DNA of 64,000 nucleotides from Mobula hypostoma (taxonomy: Eukaryota), in contig NC_086097.1 of assembly GCF_963921235.1 (NCBI RefSeq), positions 55,306,001 to 55,370,000 on the forward strand, written 5' to 3'. How positions within the stretch are numbered: the first letter of the stretch is position 1; each line of letters begins with the position of its first letter. The notes beneath the pieces were generated by a model. The model searched no databases, had not been told where the DNA came from, and saw only the letters and a list, made by a program, of their open reading frames with translations. Positions 3,411 through 21,555 of the stretch are shown here, piece by piece. The position numbers were made by a program, and so were the translations under genes.

Positions 3411-3892
3411 TAGCTAGCAATTGCATTGACATTAACATGACAAGTTAAGGCAAAATGAAGCTAATGCTGAGTATGGAACTGAACATGTTTTACAAATTGT
3501 CTGGTGGGGCCAAGGTACTAAATTCCTGTATGGATCACTAGATATCCTGGAATACACTTTATGCTTCAATTTCTGGAAGAAAATCTGCTTTGGACTGTAC
3601 ATTGTTGCCATTACATAGTAAATGAGAGAATACTGATATTTCATTTAAATCACTGAAATGACCCTGCTAGCAACAAGTAATGGGTGGAATGGGACTAAAT
3701 TCTTTATTGTTTACAGTATGCTGGAGAATATTTCCAACAATATTGTGAAATCTAATGTCTCTAAGCTCCAATAATAAATGTGAAGGTAATGTTTGCTAAA
3801 GAGCATGGCAGTGCAAATTATTGTATTCTGTTGGCAACAGCAGATGTGATAACCATCTGGATTTTTCCCTTTCATTTACCCTTCAGGTAAAT

Positions 3893-6301
3893 TGCGACTC
3901 CAGGCCGGGTCTTCGCGTGCTGCTATTGTGACTCCCGTCTCCCCTTCCTCCATCACCACTCTGCAATCCCGTCTCCCTCAGATCCCACCGTCAGCTCCTG
4001 GGCCCTCAGAGGCTCTATCTTCCTCTCACCCCAACCCTCCCCTCTCCACTGACACCACGAGCCTCCCTCCCCCTCCCCGCTCTGATCCCAGCTCTCATCC
4101 GTGCCGGGTCTTTACCAACCCCTCCGACCTTCAACTCTCTGAGGCAGAACGCTCTGTCCTCAGTAAGGGCCTCACCTTTGTCCCCCTTCGCCCACACCTC
4201 AGCGAGTTCCGCGTTTGCCATGACGCTGAACTCTTCTTCCGCCGGCTCCATCTTCGAGCCTACTTCTTCGGCAAGGACTCTCCCACCCCCACCGATGACC
4301 CCTTCTCCTGTCTTCAACCCTCCTCCTCTTCATGGACACCCCACTCTGGTCTTCTGCCTGCTCTGGATCTCTTTATTGCTAACTGCCGATGGGACATCAA
4401 CCGCCTCGACTTTACCGCACCTTGTTCCCATTCCAACTTCTCTCCTTCGGAACGCTCTGCTCTCCACTCCCTCCGCACTAATCCTAACCTTATTATTAAA
4501 CCCGCCGATAAGGGGGGTGCTGTTGTAGTCTGGCGTACTGACCGCTACTTTGCCGAGGCACAGCGACAACCCCCTGATACCTCCTCTTATTTACCCCTCG
4601 ATTATGACCCCACTAAAGAGCACCAGGCCATTGTCTCCCACACCGTCACCAACCTTATCAGCTCTGGGGATCTCCCATCCACTGCTACCAACCTTATAGT
4701 TCCCACACCTCGCGCTTCCTGTTTCTACCTCCTACCCAAGATCCACAAACCTGCCTGTCCAGATAGACCCATTGTCTCAGCTTGCTCCTGCCCCACCGAA
4801 CTCATTTCTGCATACCTCGACACTGTTTTATCCCCCCTTGTTCAATCCCTTCCTACCTATGTTCGTGACACTTCTCACACTCTGAATTTTTTCAATGATT
4901 TTACGTTCCCTGGCCCCACCGTTTTATTTTCACCATGGATGTCCAGTCCTTATATACTTCCATCCCCCATCAGGAAGGTCTCAAAGCTCTCCGCTTCTTT
5001 TTGGATTCCAGACCTAACCAGTTTCCCTCTACCACCACTCTACTCCGTCTAGCGGAATTAGTCCTTACTCTTAATAATCTCCTTTGGCTCCTCCCACTTC
5101 CTCCAAACTAAAGGTGTAGCTATGGGCACCCGTATGGGTCCTAGCTATGCCTGCCTTTTTGTTGGCTTTGTGGAACAGTCCATGTTCCAAGCCTATTCTG
5201 GTATCTGTCCCCCACTTTTCCTTCGCTACATCGACGACTGCATTGGCACTGCTTCCTGCACACATGCTGAGCTCGTTGACTTTATTAACTTTGCCTCCAA
5301 CTTTCACCCAGCCTTCATATTTACCTGGGCCATTTCTGACACCTCCCTCCCCTTTCTTGATCTTTCTATCTCTGTCTCTGGAGACAGCTTGTCTACTATA
5401 ATCCTACAGACTCTCACAGCTACCTGGACTATTCCTCTTCTCGATCTATCACTTGCAAAAATGCCATCCCCTTCTCGCAATTCCTCCATCTCCACCACAT
5501 CTGCTCTCTGGACGAGGCTTTTCATTCCAGGACGAAGGAGATGTCTTCCTTTTTTAAAGAAAGAGGCTTCCCTTCCTCCACCATCAACTCTGCTCTCAAA
5601 CACATCTCTCCCATTTCACGCACATCTGCTCTCACTCCATCCTCCCCCCACCCCTCTAGGGATAGGGTTCCCCTTGTCCTCACCTACTACCCCACCACCC
5701 TCCGGGTCCAAAATATAATTCTCTGTAACTTCTGCCACCTCCAACGGGATCCCACCACCAAGCGCATCTTTCCCTCCCTGTATCTTTCCCTGCCCCCCTC
5801 TTTCTGCTTTCCACAGGGCATTGCTCCCTACACGACTCCCTTGTCCATTTGTCCCCCCCAACCCTTCCCACCAATCTCCTTTCCGGCACTTATCCTTGTA
5901 AGTGGAACAAGTGCTACACATGCCCTTACACTTCCTCCCTCACCAGCATTCAGAGCCCCAGACCCTCCTTCCAGGTGAGGCAACACTTCACCTGTGAGTT
6001 GGCTGGGGTGATATACTGTGTCCAGTGCTCCCAGTACGACGTTCTACATATTGCTGAGACCCGATGCAGACTGGGAGACCGTTTCGCTGAACACCTACGC
6101 TCTGTCTGCCAGAGAAAGCAGGATCTCCTAGTGGCCACACATTTTAATTCCACATCCCATTCCCATTCTGATATGTCTATCCACAGCCTCCTCTACCGTC
6201 AAGATGAAGCCACACTCAGATTGGAGGAACGACACCTTATATTCTGTCTGGGTAGCCTCCAACCTGATGGCATGAACATCGACTTCTCTAACTTCCGTTA
6301 A
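3893..6301 (+). pseudogene. Frameshifted PLE reverse transcriptase - GIY-YIG endonuclease ORF
   Basis: IIKPADKGGAVVV, FYLLPKIHK..RPIVS, MGTRMGPSYACLFVG, LRYIDDC, LPFLDL; Cys linker YPCKWNKCYTC; GVIYCVQC..LHIAET..RLGDRFAEH..LQPDGMN; spread over several frames. Confidence 0.9.
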
Positions 6302-6628: not shown

Positions 6629-6719
6629 GTACCTCTTCCTATGGATGCCGCCTGGCCTGCTGCATTCCACCAGCATTTTGTGTGTGTTGTTAGGTAAATC
6701 TACCTGTTGCATCTAATTT

Positions 6720-6910: not shown

Positions 6911-7177
6911 TGAAAAGGACAAATTGAATAGTACAAAGTGACTGAAATTAATAATTGGGTCCAGAGACAGTAGAAAAATGGTAGTCTTCGGATAAAAGGA
7001 GGTCTAAGAGCAGATTACAGGCTAGAAGCAGTAAATGATCCATCTGAAGGCTTAAGGAAAGCAACTAAAATAGTATAAATTAAACAGAAAAAGGAAGACA
7101 TCAGGACAGAAAAACACCTTCGACTTTCTTGCCCCAAATACATGTAGTACTTGTAGCACATAGAGAATGTATCAAAC

Positions 7178-7406
7178 TGAAGCACCTTCAATGACTCCAA
7201 AAGACTGAAGTTGGGTAAAATACTGAAAGGGTTTTATTCACTGTACAATACGACCTCCATGGTGAGTGTCTGCCCCCGGACTGAGGGGGAGGGGCAAGGC
7301 GAACACCTTTATACAGGACTCTGTGGGAGGAGCCACAGGGGCAGTCAGCAGAGGGGCGTGTCCAGACAGGTAACCCAGTTACAACATATATACATGGTTT
7401 ACCACA
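7178..7406 (-). repeat. 3' LTR of Gypsy element
   Basis: Direct repeat of 11370-11598 (roughly 90% identical by eye); sense strand TGTGGTAAA...GCTTCA with TATAAAGG, TCAGT initiator and AATAAA. Confidence 0.95.
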
Positions 7407-7423
7407 TTCACCCCTCCTTTTTT
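7407..7423 (-). other. Polypurine tract
   Basis: Sense AAAAAAGGAGGGGTGAA immediately upstream of the 3' LTR. Confidence 0.85.
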
Positions 7424-7475: not shown

Positions 7476-10424
7476 TTACAGGTTAAGTCTATCAGGCGGT
7501 CGAGTCCGTCGCTGTGACCTACGTAGCACCGGTGGTGATTGCATCGGCGATGGTGGTTGTGCTGGCTCCGGCCTGATTTGAGGTGCCAGCACGTTAGGCG
7601 TTGTTAATCTCTCGTGCGTGTGCATCGTGCCCGGTATGGGAGTGTCGTGTGGTGTCTGTGTAGAGTTTGGAGTGCGCGGTGTCTCGTGGGTATATATATC
7701 GGTGGTTACGGGGTTAATAGTCACCATGGAGTGTTCAGGGTAGGGGTCCTGGTGCTCCTGCGGGCGCCAGGTCGTGGATGGAGACCGTGTCCTCCCGCCC
7801 ATCAGGTAATACCACGTAGGCATACTGGGGGTTCTCATGAAGTAAGTGAACCCTCTTGACCATCAGGGAGTATTTATTGCTCCTCGCATGTTTCCAGAGC
7901 AGCACTGGCCCCGGGGACGTCAGCCAAGTTGGTAGGGTGGTCCCAGTGGTCGACTTTCTGGGAAAAGAAAAGAGCCGCTCATGAGGTGTGGCATTGGTGG
8001 CTGTGCATAACAGGGAGCGGATGGAGTGGAGTGCCTCAGGAAAGACCTCCTGCCAGCGGGAGATCGGCAGTCCCTTTGACCTGAGGGCTAAGAGTGTGGC
8101 TTTCCACACCGTGCCATTCTCATTCACCACCTGTCCATTCCCCCGGGGATTATAGCTTGTGGTCCTACTGGTTGCAATTCCCCTAGCCAGCAGGTATGGG
8201 CGCAGCTCGTCACTCATAAACGAGGACCCTCTGTCACTGTGGATATAGCATGGGTATCCGAAAAGAGTGAAGATCTTGCGCAGGGCTTTTATAACTGATG
8301 TGGTAGTGGTGTCGGGGCAGAGGATGGCGAAGGGGAACCGCGAGTACTCGTTGATAATGTTAAGAAAGTACACATTGCGGTTGGTGGAGGGAAGGGGGCC
8401 CTTAAAGTCAACACTCAGTCGCTCAAAGGGGTGGGTGGCCTTGATTAGTTGTGCCTTTTTGGGTCGGTAGAAGTGCAGTTTGCACTCTGTGCAGACTTGG
8501 CAGTCCCTGGTCATCGTCCTGATCTCCTGAAGGGAGTAAGGCAGGTTCAGGGCTTTCACGAAGTGGAAAAGCCGAGTGACTCCCGGGTGGCAAAGGTCTA
8601 CATGTAAGGCGTATAGCAGGTCGATCTGCGCGCTGGCGCATGTTCCCCGGGATAGGGCATCAGAGGGCTCGTTGAGCTTCCCGGGCCTGTACATGATGTC
8701 ATAGTTGTAAGTGGAGAGTTCGATTCTCCACCTCAGAATTTTATCATTTTTGATTTTGCCCCGCTGTTGGTTATTAAACATGAATGCGACTGGTCAGTTT
8801 GCAGGGTGAACCTTTTGACGGCAAGATAGTGCCTGCAGTGCCTAATAGCTTCCACTATGGCCTGGGCCTCTTTCTCCACCGCGGAGTGCCGAATTTCAGG
8901 GCCTTGAAGGGTACGGGAGAAGAACGCCACTGGTCTTCCTGCCTGGTTGAGGGTAGCAGCCAGCGCAAAGTCGGAGGCGTCACTCTCCACTTGGAAGGGA
9001 ATGGCCTCATCCACCGCATGCATTGCTGCTTTGGCAATGTCCCCTTTTATGCGGCTGAAGGCTGTGCGGGCCTCGGCAGAGAGGGGGAATGTGGTGGACT
9101 TGACCAGGGGGCGGGCCTTGTCTGCATAGTTAGAGACCCATTGCGCGTAATATGAAAAGAAGCCCAGGCACCTTTTGAGGGCTCTGAGGGTGTTGGGAAG
9201 AGGGAGTTCCAACAGGGGGCGCATACGGTCAGGGCATACGGTGGGCCAATGACTCCATTCTCCACGACACACCCAAGGATAGCAAGAAGGGTGGTCTTGA
9301 ATACGCACTTGTCCTTGTTATAGGTGAGGTTGAAAGCTTTGGCCGCTTGGAGAAAGTTTTGGATGTTGTTGTCGTGATCCTCCTGGTCGTGACCGCAGAT
9401 GGTGATGTTATTCAGATATGGGAACGTGGCCTTCAGTTGGCACTGGTCCACCATCCAGTCCATTGCCCTCTGGAAGACAGATACACCATTCGTGACGCCA
9501 AAGGGGACGCACAGGAATTGATAAAGCCTGCCGTCCGCCTCGAAGGCAGTGTAAGGGCGGTCCTCCAGGCGGTTGGGGAGCTGATGGTAAGCGGATTTTA
9601 GGTCTATGGTTGAGTACACCTTGTACTGTGCTATCTGATTGACCATATCCACGATGCTGGGTAGAGGGTACGTGTTGAGCTGTGTGAACTTATTGATGGT
9701 CTGACTATAGTCCATGACCATCCTATTCTTCTCCCCGTTCCGAACAACCACCACCTGCGCCCTCCAAGGACTTGTGCTTGCCTCAATGACCCCTTCCCTG
9801 AGCAGCCACTGCACCTTCGACTTAATGTCCCCCGCGCTGTACCTCCTGCTTTTAGTTGCCACAGGTTTACAGTCGGGGGTCAAGTTGGCGAACAGCGGTG
9901 GGAAAGGGATCCTGAGGGTGGAGAGGCCGCGAGTGGCGTCGGTAGTGTGGCAGTTGGCATGATGTTGGGTGGGATGTGCGGGTCGGTGTGTGTGTGTGGT
10001 CAGTAGCAGGGTACGTGACATATCTCTACAAAACTGGGGATTTACGACAGTAATTGGTGGGAGGGGCCCATCATACTCCATTGTCACGGTCTTCAGGTGG
10101 CTCTGGAAGTCGAGCCCCAATAGCACAGGGGCACACAGTTGAGGCATAACCATTAACGTAAAGTCTCGATATTCTGTGCCCTGCACCACTAGTGTCGCTA
10201 CACAACCCCCCCCCCCCCCGGATGTCTGTTGTATGCAACTTGGAAGCCACGGTGACCCTCTGACTTACCGGCCGTATCATGAGTCCGCAATGCTGCACCG
10301 TGTCCGGGTGGATAAAACTCTCCGTGCTGCCTGTGTCAAACAGGCAGCTTGTCCTGCGCCCCTCCACCAGGATGTCCATCATTGACCTTGTGAGCTGCTG
10401 GGGAGCGCTTTGGTCGAGGGTCAC
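7476..10424 (-). pseudogene. pol: pol (protease, RT, RNase H, integrase), frameshifted
   Basis: PR CLFDTGSTESF; RT SPWRAQVVVV, IDLKSAYHQ, VPFGVTNG, YLNNI; RNase H VESDASDFAL, EKEAQAI; IN HVDLCHPG..CQVC, DFKGP, HSDRGSSF; C-terminal LRRSQRRTRPPDRLNL. Confidence 0.93.
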
Positions 10425-11343
10425 AGAAGCCAGGGTAGGTCCGGTGCGTTGGGGTGCCCCGTGAGCACCCGTTGGTCATAGGCGGTGGGAGGGGGCACTG
10501 ACCAAGATGGCTGCCCCCATGTCTCGCACGTGGTGGCGGCGTGCAGGGAAGATGGCGGCAGGCAAGATGGCGACCCCCATGTTTCGCACACGGCACTGCT
10601 CGATTCCGCTCGCGGTTTGGACTTACAGACCTTGGCGAAGTGGTCCTTCTTTCCGCAGCTGGAGCAGGTAGCTTGTCGGGCCGGGCAGCGTTTCCGGGGG
10701 TGTTTCTCCAGTCCGCAGAAGTAGCACTTTGCAGAATCATGACTGGCGGCAGCCGAGGTCAATTTGCCGGCGGGTTGTGGGGTCTGCAGCGCCCACGAGG
10801 CCGTCGGGGGATCGCGTGCCTGGAGAGCCTCAGATTTGTGCAGAGCGGCCTCCAGCGTGTCGGCCAGCTCGATCGCTGAACTTAAGGTAAGATCGGCTTT
10901 TTCCAGCAGCCGCTGGCGCACGTACACTGACTTGGTCCCCGTGACGAAGGCGTCTCTCACTAGGAGCTCTGCATGCTGCGCCGCTGTCAGCTCCTGGCGA
11001 TTGCAGGCCCACACGAGTGTCTGTAGGGCCTGGACAAACTCAGCACTCGATTCCCCGGGGCGTTGTTGCCGTGTCGCTAAACAGTGCCGAGCATAGACGC
11101 TGTTTATCGGCCGCAGGTATTGTCTTTTGAGTGCGTTCATCGCGCCGTCGTAGTTCGGCTGGTCAGCGAATAGACCTGTGGACTGACCCCGGAGGGTAGA
11201 AATCTGTGCTTCGCTACGGAGTTGGTCGCTTTAATCTCCTCTAGGTACGCTTCGAAGCAGGCCAGCCGGAGTTCAAAAGCATTTCCAGCTTCAGGCGTGT
11301 GCGGATTGAGGTCTAACTTGTTGGGTCTCAGAGCGTGTTCCAT
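10421..11343 (-). pseudogene. gag: gag with two CCHC zinc knuckles, one frameshift near 11150
   Basis: ORFs 11137-11343 and 10421-11140; RQQRPGESSAEFVQAL; CYFCGLEKHPRKRC and CSSCGKKDHFAKVC. Confidence 0.9.
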
Positions 11344-11354
11344 GCTTTAAAATT

Positions 11355-11367
11355 TACAGCGAATAAA
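11355..11367 (-). other. Non-tRNA primer-binding-site-like sequence complementary to the LTR
   Basis: Sense TTTATTCGCTGTA lies 2 nt after the 5' LTR and is the exact complement of sense TACAGCGAATAAA at 11425-11437; no TGG. Confidence 0.75.
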
Positions 11368-11369
11368 GT

Positions 11370-11598
11370 TGAAGCACCTTCAATAACTCCAAAAGACTGA
11401 AGTTGGGTAAAATACTAAAAGGCTTTTATTCGCTGTACAATACAACCTCCATGCCGAGTGTCTGCCCCCAGACTGAGGGGGAGAGGCAAGGCGAAATCAG
11501 CTTTATTCAGGGGTCTGTGAGAGGAGCCACAGGGGCGGTCAGCAGAGGGGTGTGTCCAGACAGTTAACCCAGTTACAACATATATATGGTTTACCACA
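11370..11598 (-). repeat. 5' LTR of Gypsy element
   Basis: Direct repeat of 7178-7406, TG...CA ends. Confidence 0.95.
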
Positions 11599-11624
11599 CA
11601 AATAAAGTCATTAGTGGTACAAGT

Positions 11625-11765
11625 TTCTGGCTTCTTCCCCCCTTTCTTTCGAAAGCTGATGAAAGGTCTCAGCATGAAACCTCGGCTGCCTGACCTGCTG
11701 AGTTCCTCCTGCATTTTGTATGTGTTGCTCTAGACTTGCAGCATCTGCAAGATCTCTTGTGTTTA
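11625..11765 (+). mobile_element. PLE 3'-terminal fragment with degenerate hammerhead
   Basis: CTGATGA-AAGGTCTCAGCAT-GAAAC followed by the family tail ctgcctgacctgctgagttcctcc...cagcatctgca. Confidence 0.8.
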
Positions 11766-20956: not shown

Positions 20957-21555
20957 AATAAGAGAAAATCTGCAGATGCCAGAATCCAACCAACACATAC
21001 ACACATCATGCTGGAGGAACTCAGCAGGCCAAGCAGCATCTATAGAAAAGAGTTTGGCTGATGTTTCGGGCTGAGACCCTTCATCAGAACTGGAGGAAAA
21101 AAAATGACGGGTCAGAGTAAGAAGATGGGGGGAGGGAACGAAGAAACACAAGGTGAGAGGTGAAACTGGGAGGGTGGGGAGGGGTGAAGTGAAGAGCTGG
21201 GAAGTTGATTAATAAAAGAGATACAGGGCTGGAGAAGGGGAACCTGACAGGAGAGGACAGAAGGCCATGGAATAAAGCAAACGGGGAGGTGCACCAGAAG
21301 GAGGTGATGGGCAGGAAAGGAGGTGAGATGAGAGAGGGAAATGGGAATGGGGAATGGTGAAGGAGAGGTCCACAAAGATCCACAAACCTGCCTGTCAAGG
21401 TAATCCCATTATTTCTGCTTGTTCCTGCCCCACTGACCTTATATCTGCATACCTCGACTCAGTTTTATCCCCCTTGTTGTTCAGACCTTCCTGTCTACAC
21501 CTGTGACACTTCACACGTTCTTGATCTTTTCAATGACTTCAAGTTTCCTGGCCTT
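20957..21555 (-). mobile_element. PLE with inversion: minus-strand 3' end (20957-21368) joined to a plus-strand RT piece (21373-21555)
   Basis: Tail and hammerhead (21056-21091) on minus; caaagatccacaaacctgcctgtc on plus matches about 4737-4760. Confidence 0.85.

Follow-up and report, generated by a model that had tools for sequence, protein, structure and literature searches.

How does a Ty3/gypsy retrotransposon begin minus-strand synthesis when the position behind its 5' LTR holds no TGG for the CCA end of a tRNA? The question is raised by a 4,421-nt element on the minus strand of a 64,000-nt stretch of the Mobula hypostoma genome (NC_086097.1, positions 55,306,001 to 55,370,000; hereafter the window, whose first letter is position 1), at the joint between its 5' LTR and its leader. 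An earlier note, made from the letters alone, had proposed that the element primes itself. We conclude that it is a decayed member of a Ty3/gypsy clade of compact elements without a chromodomain, in which the primer-binding position is complementary to the element's own LTR. Such elements are likely to prime on their own RNA, in the family of the window copy probably with a capped fragment of about 50 nt.

The element and its primer-binding position

The features of the element are collected in Table 1. Reverse transcriptase (RT), RNase H and integrase were assigned by Pfam and are preceded by gag and protease, which is the Ty3/gypsy domain order (protease families are present in the Pfam lists of the homologues), and the structural hallmarks of the group, TG...CA LTRs, a polypurine tract and a target-site duplication, are all present. 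The gag ATG lies at 11343 on the minus strand, and the coding region was recovered as six tblastn pieces with changing frames. Given these six pieces, the divergence of the LTR pair (identity in 210 of 231 columns) and the mismatch in the 5-bp duplication, the window copy is old and broken. A Pfam scan of the integrase frame returned rve alone and the protein ends in LRRSQRRTRPPDRLNL before the stop, in agreement with the earlier statement that no chromodomain is present. The family is abundant, with 1,369 LTR-leader joint candidates and 2,855 gag candidates in the 3.48-Gb host genome, figures that count candidates and not copies, and the named proteins nearest to the element, among the matches listed, come from rays (Hypanus, Hemitrygon and Mobula).

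Table 1. Features of the Ty3/gypsy element, in window positions
Feature	Position	Strand	Basis or remark
5' LTR	11370..11598	-	229 nt, TG...CA; loose ends of public contigs at 11370 and 11598
3' LTR	7178..7406	-	LTR comparison
Polypurine tract	7411..7423	-	Sequence read
5-bp target-site duplication, left copy	11599..11603	-	Partner at 7173-7177, one mismatch
gag-pol (two CCHC knuckles, protease, RT, RNase H, integrase)	7476..11343	-	Frameshift-broken
Integrase C-terminal tail, without chromodomain	7476..7526	-	16 residues, basic
TATA-box position	11501..11509	-	Variant box in 5' LTR; canonical in 3' LTR
Initiator TCAGT, predicted start 11474	11472..11476	-	Promoter spacing and three fold-back joints
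Predicted primer, capped 5' fragment of ~51 nt	11424..11474	-	Inferred from promoter spacing and joints
LTR arm (13-mer at 11437-11425), with cutting and priming predicted at its 3' end	11424..11438	-	
Rest of R and U5, forming the duplex loop, with inner stem in the host family	11371..11423	-	RNAfold
Primer-binding position (spacer and complement of arm), without TGG	11355..11369	-	Also read in host copies

The 5' LTR ends in GCTTCA and is followed by AC and then by TTTATTCGCTGTA (11367-11355, minus strand), which is the exact complement of TACAGCGAATAAA (11437-11425) inside the same LTR; the arm includes an AATAAA hexamer (11430-11425), on which the earlier note is silent. No TGG follows the 5' LTR of the window copy. 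Both the missing TGG and the perfectly complementary 13-mer had been described in the earlier note and are exact in the sequence, as is the polarity required for priming. Its distance of 2 nt between LTR edge and pairing holds for the window copy, whereas in most other host copies a duplex of 14-16 bp starts 1 nt after the CA of the LTR. None of 300 dinucleotide shuffles of the LTR produced a stem of 13 bp that begins 0-3 nt past the LTR end (mean 4.6, maximum 9). Folding of 11480-11340 with RNAfold, a check that the note had suggested, gave a structure of -42.7 kcal/mol that contains the inner stem of U5; its z score is -3.33, and none of 200 shuffles did as well. The note's proposal that U5 extends the stem is borne out for the fold of the window copy. 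A second helix after the arm and beside the cut site is seen in the folds of many families; it was not supported as a clade-wide feature, its length in 18 families (81) being no greater than that in shuffled sequences (76; 205 of 1,000).

Several further observations concern the window and its surroundings. In four runs, contig depth over the LTR (11370-11598) was about ten times or more that over gag, an excess that suggests many solo LTRs, depth being a poor measure. One contig of run X3 skips 99 nt within 11401-11501; the skipped stretch has GT..AG ends when read on the strand complementary to that of the element, and the short side of the contig measures 23 nt. Elsewhere in the window, 3853-6301 and a second fragment at 21375-21473 contain a broken reverse transcriptase region that we take to be LINE-like, and a 42-nt repeat, presumably SINE-like, is present in three copies (24-65, 6647-6688 and 11685-11726).

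Pairing in host copies and across the clade

Because the first 30 host loci had been chosen with a query containing both arms, a second set of 30 was selected by gag protein. Of these 60 loci, 56 were parsed (27 gag-selected and 29 DNA-selected, with the window copy counted twice). Pairing extended over 14 of 14 positions in 40 parsed loci and over at least 13 in 52, with one locus at 8, and TGG was absent from the first six bases after the LTR in all 56. One host locus (L021:1336-1414) has an inverted U5-R piece in place of the start of U3, ahead of a normal LTR and leader.

Relatives were collected in a metagenome scan that yielded at least 79 loci with 46-63% integrase identity, of which 46 lacked a gag start, two were too short before gag and 31 were usable. 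The LTR end was set by the LTR pair in 14 of the usable loci and from the CA before gag in 17. Ahead of gag, 29 of the 31, among the matches listed, have a stem that measures 10 nt or more and begins 0-3 nt past the CA, and none was found in L112 and L120; control positions gave averages of 6.1-7.5 and maxima of 8.3-19. Clustering at 85% integrase identity gave 19 families, including that of the window copy, with 43-79% identity between families among the matches listed, and 18 of them, with the same scope, have at least 10 of 12 pairs at offset 1. Across the clade the complement measures 11-19 bp and starts about 1 nt after the CA, and the arm lies 23-67 nt from the LTR end in the clade loci among the matches listed. 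Clade elements are compact (∼4.0-4.6 kb).

The check for covariation that the earlier note had called for could be carried out on 18 families. When each leader was paired with its own LTR, 192 of 198 pairs formed at positions 1-11, compared with a permuted mean of 141 and maximum of 172 (0 of 10,000), and positions 13-17, which had not been used for anchoring, gave 61 of 90 pairs against 43 permuted (0 of 10,000), the families in both tests being related and hence not independent events. Pairing is strongest at positions 1-13 and weaker beyond 13, and several pair types occur at each of positions 4-13. Changes are matched on both sides: L064 and L066, which belong to one family, differ by one change that is present in both strands of the duplex, and L104 keeps its pairing with an arm that has no poly(A) hexamer. 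Arms end in AATAAA or ATTAAA in 11 of the 18 families, and the seven arms without either hexamer still pair. Two of the three observations that the earlier note had named as speaking against self-priming, a family with a TGG site and a pairing that is not conserved, were sought here, and TGG was found in no host locus and in 0 of 19 families, among the matches listed, while the pairing is kept. We take the signature of tRNA-independent priming to be real and clade-wide, and self-priming, in one layout or the other, to be very likely.

The arms have other recurring features. In 17 of 18 families a G occupies position 10 from the 3' end of the arm, and its surroundings often resemble an initiator; in 14 of 18, GCC or ACC directly follows the arm. 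These conserved bases may serve to mark the cut site. TTACC, the complement of a 5' splice site, lies 31-47 nt upstream of the end of the arm in four of the 18 families (L124, L094, L083 and L133). We also weighed whether the arm might contain a 3' splice site, and discarded the idea, as the pairing runs through this place in the unspliced form and TG stands there in three families. Very short LTRs, measured from polypurine tract to CA, occur in L091 (∼80 nt, with exactly 11 pairs) and L096 (∼106 nt), and the element-length metagenome contigs of L087, L088 and L091 have overlapping ends, as one-LTR circles or collapsed tandem copies would. No relatives were found among viral contigs.

Fold-back insertions, transcript start and primer

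If the arm is the primer, plus-strand DNA should read through the LTR and the spacer base into an antisense copy of the arm. This prediction was tested with a search pattern in which sense R and arm run into antisense U5. The joint was found in 54 host loci, all of which were examined, and the reversed-pattern control gave none. U3-to-U3 palindromes with a 5-bp duplication account for 24 of the 54 (21 exact and three with one mismatch), six have internal sequence and a polypurine tract on the sense side, two (L268 and L273, the latter a whole, internally deleted element) carry the antisense arm after a 3' LTR, and the remaining 22 are cut, decayed or without a duplication by the rule of the script. 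In the U3-to-U3 insertions, integrase has accepted two left ends. The 24 palindromes need only a plus strand that ended in the leader, for which a primer bound further downstream could also suffice. Since no genomic leader stands beside a 3' LTR and the duplications mark integrase products, L268 and L273 are most simply explained by copying of an attached primer. Simple inversion of the loop between the arms was rejected as their source, as leader and gag followed an inverted loop in none of the 30 loci compared in this respect. Within the set L238-L291, palindromic insertions of about 405 bp, bounded by U3 at either end and flanked by 5-bp duplications, make up a small non-autonomous class. 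The behaviour of Tf1 cDNA, about half of which keeps a single-stranded copy of the primer site together with non-templated bases according to the accessible text of PMC11042837, would be a parallel to the fold-back loci.

The promoter of the host family gives an estimate of where the primer begins. Of the gag-selected loci 23 of 27 have TATAAA, of the DNA-selected ones 9 of 29. The TCAGT initiator (Inr) occurs in 49 of the 56 and follows the TATA box at a distance of 30-33 nt; from the A of the initiator (11474, LTR position 125) to the end of the arm the distance is 51 nt in 46 of the 49. In the host family TATA box and initiator precede the arm by 36-38 nt, and a TATA-like box 31 nt before it was not seen. 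A short sense side was noted in eight fold-back loci, which start at LTR positions 126, 121, 124, 126, 143, 148, 13 and 157. L288 (an ordinary leader) and L281 (decayed, full length) were dropped from the joint statistic; L253 and L275, which are later internal deletions, are included in the figure of three of six and excluded from that of three of four. The joints of L239, L256 and L272 start at LTR positions 124-126, compared with the predicted start at 125, for which the chance expectation in an 8-nt window is P = 0.003 (three of six) or 0.0006 (three of four), and 0.012 in a 13-nt window. In L272, which is flanked by 5-bp duplications, the LTR and spacer are followed by antisense R, which reaches position 126, and then by three extra bases. 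L239 and L256 run from that position to two different internal sites via a 7-nt microhomology (positions 126-132), of a kind for which 68 of 139 7-mers in the relevant part of the LTR have a match. A looser joint pattern added four loci, none of them short on the sense side. The simplest reading of the three joints would be that a capped primer some 50 nt long was copied up to its cap; were a plus strand to switch onto the capped end of a different RNA, identical joints would arise with no need for a 51-nt primer. TATA/Inr spacing and joints together support the start that had been predicted about 35 nt upstream of the arm. No run recorded as RNA was found to contain the LTR stretch, and in contigs from four of eight runs, which behave like DNA, no RNA start or end was seen. 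On this evidence we lean towards a capped fragment of about 50 nt as the primer of the host family.

The following sequence of events is proposed. Transcription would start near 11474, and the arm (nt 36-51 of the transcript) would pair with the leader. The RNA would be cut 3' of the arm by a nuclease, which the analogy with Tf1 suggests to be the RNase H of RT, and RT would extend the cut end through U5, transfer to the 3' R and complete the minus strand. Plus-strand DNA would then copy the LTR and after it the still-attached primer. Rare products that snapped back, or in which the primer was copied to the cap, would be integrated as the fold-back loci. The same duplex may also hide the poly(A) signal of the 5' LTR, a possibility suggested by the AATAAA or ATTAAA in which the arm usually ends.

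Other explanations of the duplex were weighed against this scheme. An exactly Tf1-like arrangement, in which transcription begins at the arm and the first 11-16 nt of the RNA act as primer, would agree with the concentration of pairing at positions 1-13, the conserved G with its initiator-like context and L091, whose short LTR and 11-bp stem fit a cap-proximal primer; it is nevertheless unlikely in view of the position of TATA box and initiator in the host family, the three joints that begin at the initiator and the pairing past position 12, which exceeds permutation. As L091 may use the cap-proximal layout, we propose the long primer solely for the host family. The poly(A) hairpin of HIV-1 prevents premature cleavage, and the duplex might likewise do nothing but mask the 5' LTR signal while another RNA primes elsewhere. 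The frequent hexamer at the end of the arm and the presence of its partner only beside the 5' LTR would suit such a role. It is very unlikely, however, given the arms that pair without a hexamer, a fixed offset from the CA that priming needs and masking does not, the antisense arm after the 3' LTRs of L268 and L273, and the lack of a TGG site in the 19 families among the matches listed.

That the inverted repeat is a DNA-level by-product, such as of template switching at the LTR end, or serves packaging or dimerisation deserves very little credence: inverted repeats do give rise to rearranged copies in the host, but this account has to face a fixed position and covariation over 18 families with 43-79% integrase identity, and it leaves minus-strand priming unexplained. 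We give almost none to priming by a host tRNA or tRNA fragment with a secondary LTR match. Priming by half-tRNAs is known for Copia lineages from the accessible text of PMC6317226, and the host comparison covered tRNA-Lys only, 63 of about 248,000 candidates having been scored in an Rfam tRNA search and the 30 loci examined all being tRNA-Lys(TTT). However, the leaders differ among families and each tracks its own LTR, the arm together with a T-loop motif occurs twice in the host genome and in no tRNA gene, and no Rfam family reaches its cut-off at the site. The tRNA check suggested in the earlier note, as far as this partial test goes, gave no host tRNA gene with the arm ahead of the T-loop motif. 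The tRNA-Lys(TTT) genes themselves form a large tandem cluster at G000:C90:4.02-4.33 Mb. Priming by the element's own RNA is the reading retained here.

Lineage and relation to known self-priming elements

Relatives of the element are present in sharks and rays, cnidarians, insects, spiders, molluscs, crustaceans, flatworms and nematodes. Among the matches listed, 66 of 74 full-length homologues (at least 1,150 aa in a single frame) have two CCHC knuckles, none of the 74 has a GPY/F motif in its last 250 aa, and no chromo family appears in the Pfam lists of 240 homologues. In 52 of the 74 full-length polyproteins (P0121-P0240), again among the matches listed, the YxDD motif ends in Asn (YLDN, YMDN or YIDN), and many of these look intact; YxDN is an unusual catalytic motif for a widespread clade.

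In RT trees (a quick tree of 46 rows and a second of 23 of those 46, without named reference sequences) the clade occupies its own 100/100 branch, apart from other host RTs, from three that we label Mag-like by their motifs, and from host elements found with PF24626 that we label sushi-type in the same way, Tf1 and sushi themselves not being in the tree. Support for a sister group was 45/83 with the sushi-type elements, and 71 in one tree with the Mag-like RTs, a grouping absent from the other tree (p-AU 0.49). Of the characters of Tf1/sushi, the clade thus has the own-LTR primer site without a tRNA site, but neither the chromodomain nor the nesting of its RT. A distinction from sushi-type chromoviruses is supported by the chromodomain and RT tests, with group labels assigned by motif, in line with the non-chromovirus lineage proposed in the earlier note. 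The CsRn1 clade, defined by a CHCC Gag motif, a tRNA-Trp site and a 4-bp duplication in the accessible text of PMC2582038, differs in all three, the present clade having CCHC knuckles, no TGG and 5-bp duplications. Two CCHC knuckles and a short basic integrase tail are traits of the Mag lineage (A, B and C clades; MolGy3 and MolGy11), which the clade shares; it differs in that its RT sits on a long branch of its own. It may correspond to a published clade, for example one of the MolGy clades of PMC6238403, whose text on these clades, in the parts accessible, does not mention primer sites; no RT-motif match to the clade was found in five supplements of that paper.

Self-priming is placed in Tf1/sushi, Tcn1 and TAR Copia elements, with the RNA 5' end as primer, in the accessible text of PMC6317226, PMC10085805, PMC4600332, PMC5341516, PMC11042837, PMC3601003 and PMC13524379. 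Like Tf1/Tf2 of Schizosaccharomyces pombe, Tj1, Tosmo1-3, Tcry1 and Tf1/sushi, as far as these are described in the available parts of PMC10085805, PMC4600332 and PMC5341516, the present elements have no tRNA site and a primer-binding site complementary to their own LTR RNA, and the primer would be copied into the cDNA end, as reported for the Tf1 group in the accessible text of PMC11042837 and here read from the fold-back loci. Unlike Tf1/sushi they lack chromodomain and GPY/F and form a separate RT clade, their arm lies at the stated distance from the LTR end and usually finishes in a poly(A) hexamer, and in the host family about 36 nt are predicted to separate the cap from the start of the arm, whereas the Tf1 primer is cap-proximal. 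Of the three-duplex 'pretzel' around the Tf1/sushi primer, the inner stem is seen in the window copy. The clade would thus work like Tf1 while standing, by the chromodomain and RT tests, outside the Tf1/sushi chromoviruses.

Sushi-type host elements (L201 and L207-L210) have an 11-nt self-complementary primer site; in five of eight, with boxes identified by eye, a TATA-like box precedes the arm by 31 nt and the LTR end is 174-227 nt away, an arrangement of the cap-proximal kind. The host therefore likely carries two kinds of self-priming Gypsy elements, to judge from their sequences. TAR (Houba, Osr-1) Copia and Tcn1 elements resemble the clade in that self-priming is predicted from LTR complementarity, TAR also lying outside the chromoviruses (accessible text of PMC6317226), but they are plant lineages and TAR is Ty1/copia, whereas the present clade is animal Ty3/gypsy. 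Skipper of Dictyostelium (PMC5006619) and the fungal GalEa Copia elements (PMC6934838) likewise lack a canonical tRNA site; in the available parts of these papers, Skipper has a polypyrimidine stretch without an LTR complement and GalEa an internal hairpin.

A search of the full-text literature, with Repbase, GyDB and most subscription papers outside its scope, returned no description of self-priming in the present clade. Repbase entries mention self-primed Gypsy families, so a prior description is possible. To our knowledge, self-priming has been shown only for Tf1, and it is treated as a hallmark of Tf1/sushi chromoviruses. A wider picture can be offered only tentatively and is rather doubtful as a whole: an animal-wide Gypsy clade with tRNA-free priming independent of Tf1/sushi, in which the RNA is cut where its own poly(A) signal ends on the 3' side, the complete leader with its cap, about 50 nt in all, serves as primer, the same hairpin silences the poly(A) site of the 5' LTR, and fossils map both ends of the primer.

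A second large animal Gypsy clade that primes itself would, if true, mean that independence from tRNA is common or has arisen more than once, and 3' tRNA fragments directed at the primer site could not block such elements. A primer that ends in the poly(A) signal would, if true, tie priming to 3'-end control. Fold-back insertions allow the identity of the primer and the start site to be read from the genome alone, and they make the mechanism testable by ordinary mapping of RNA ends.
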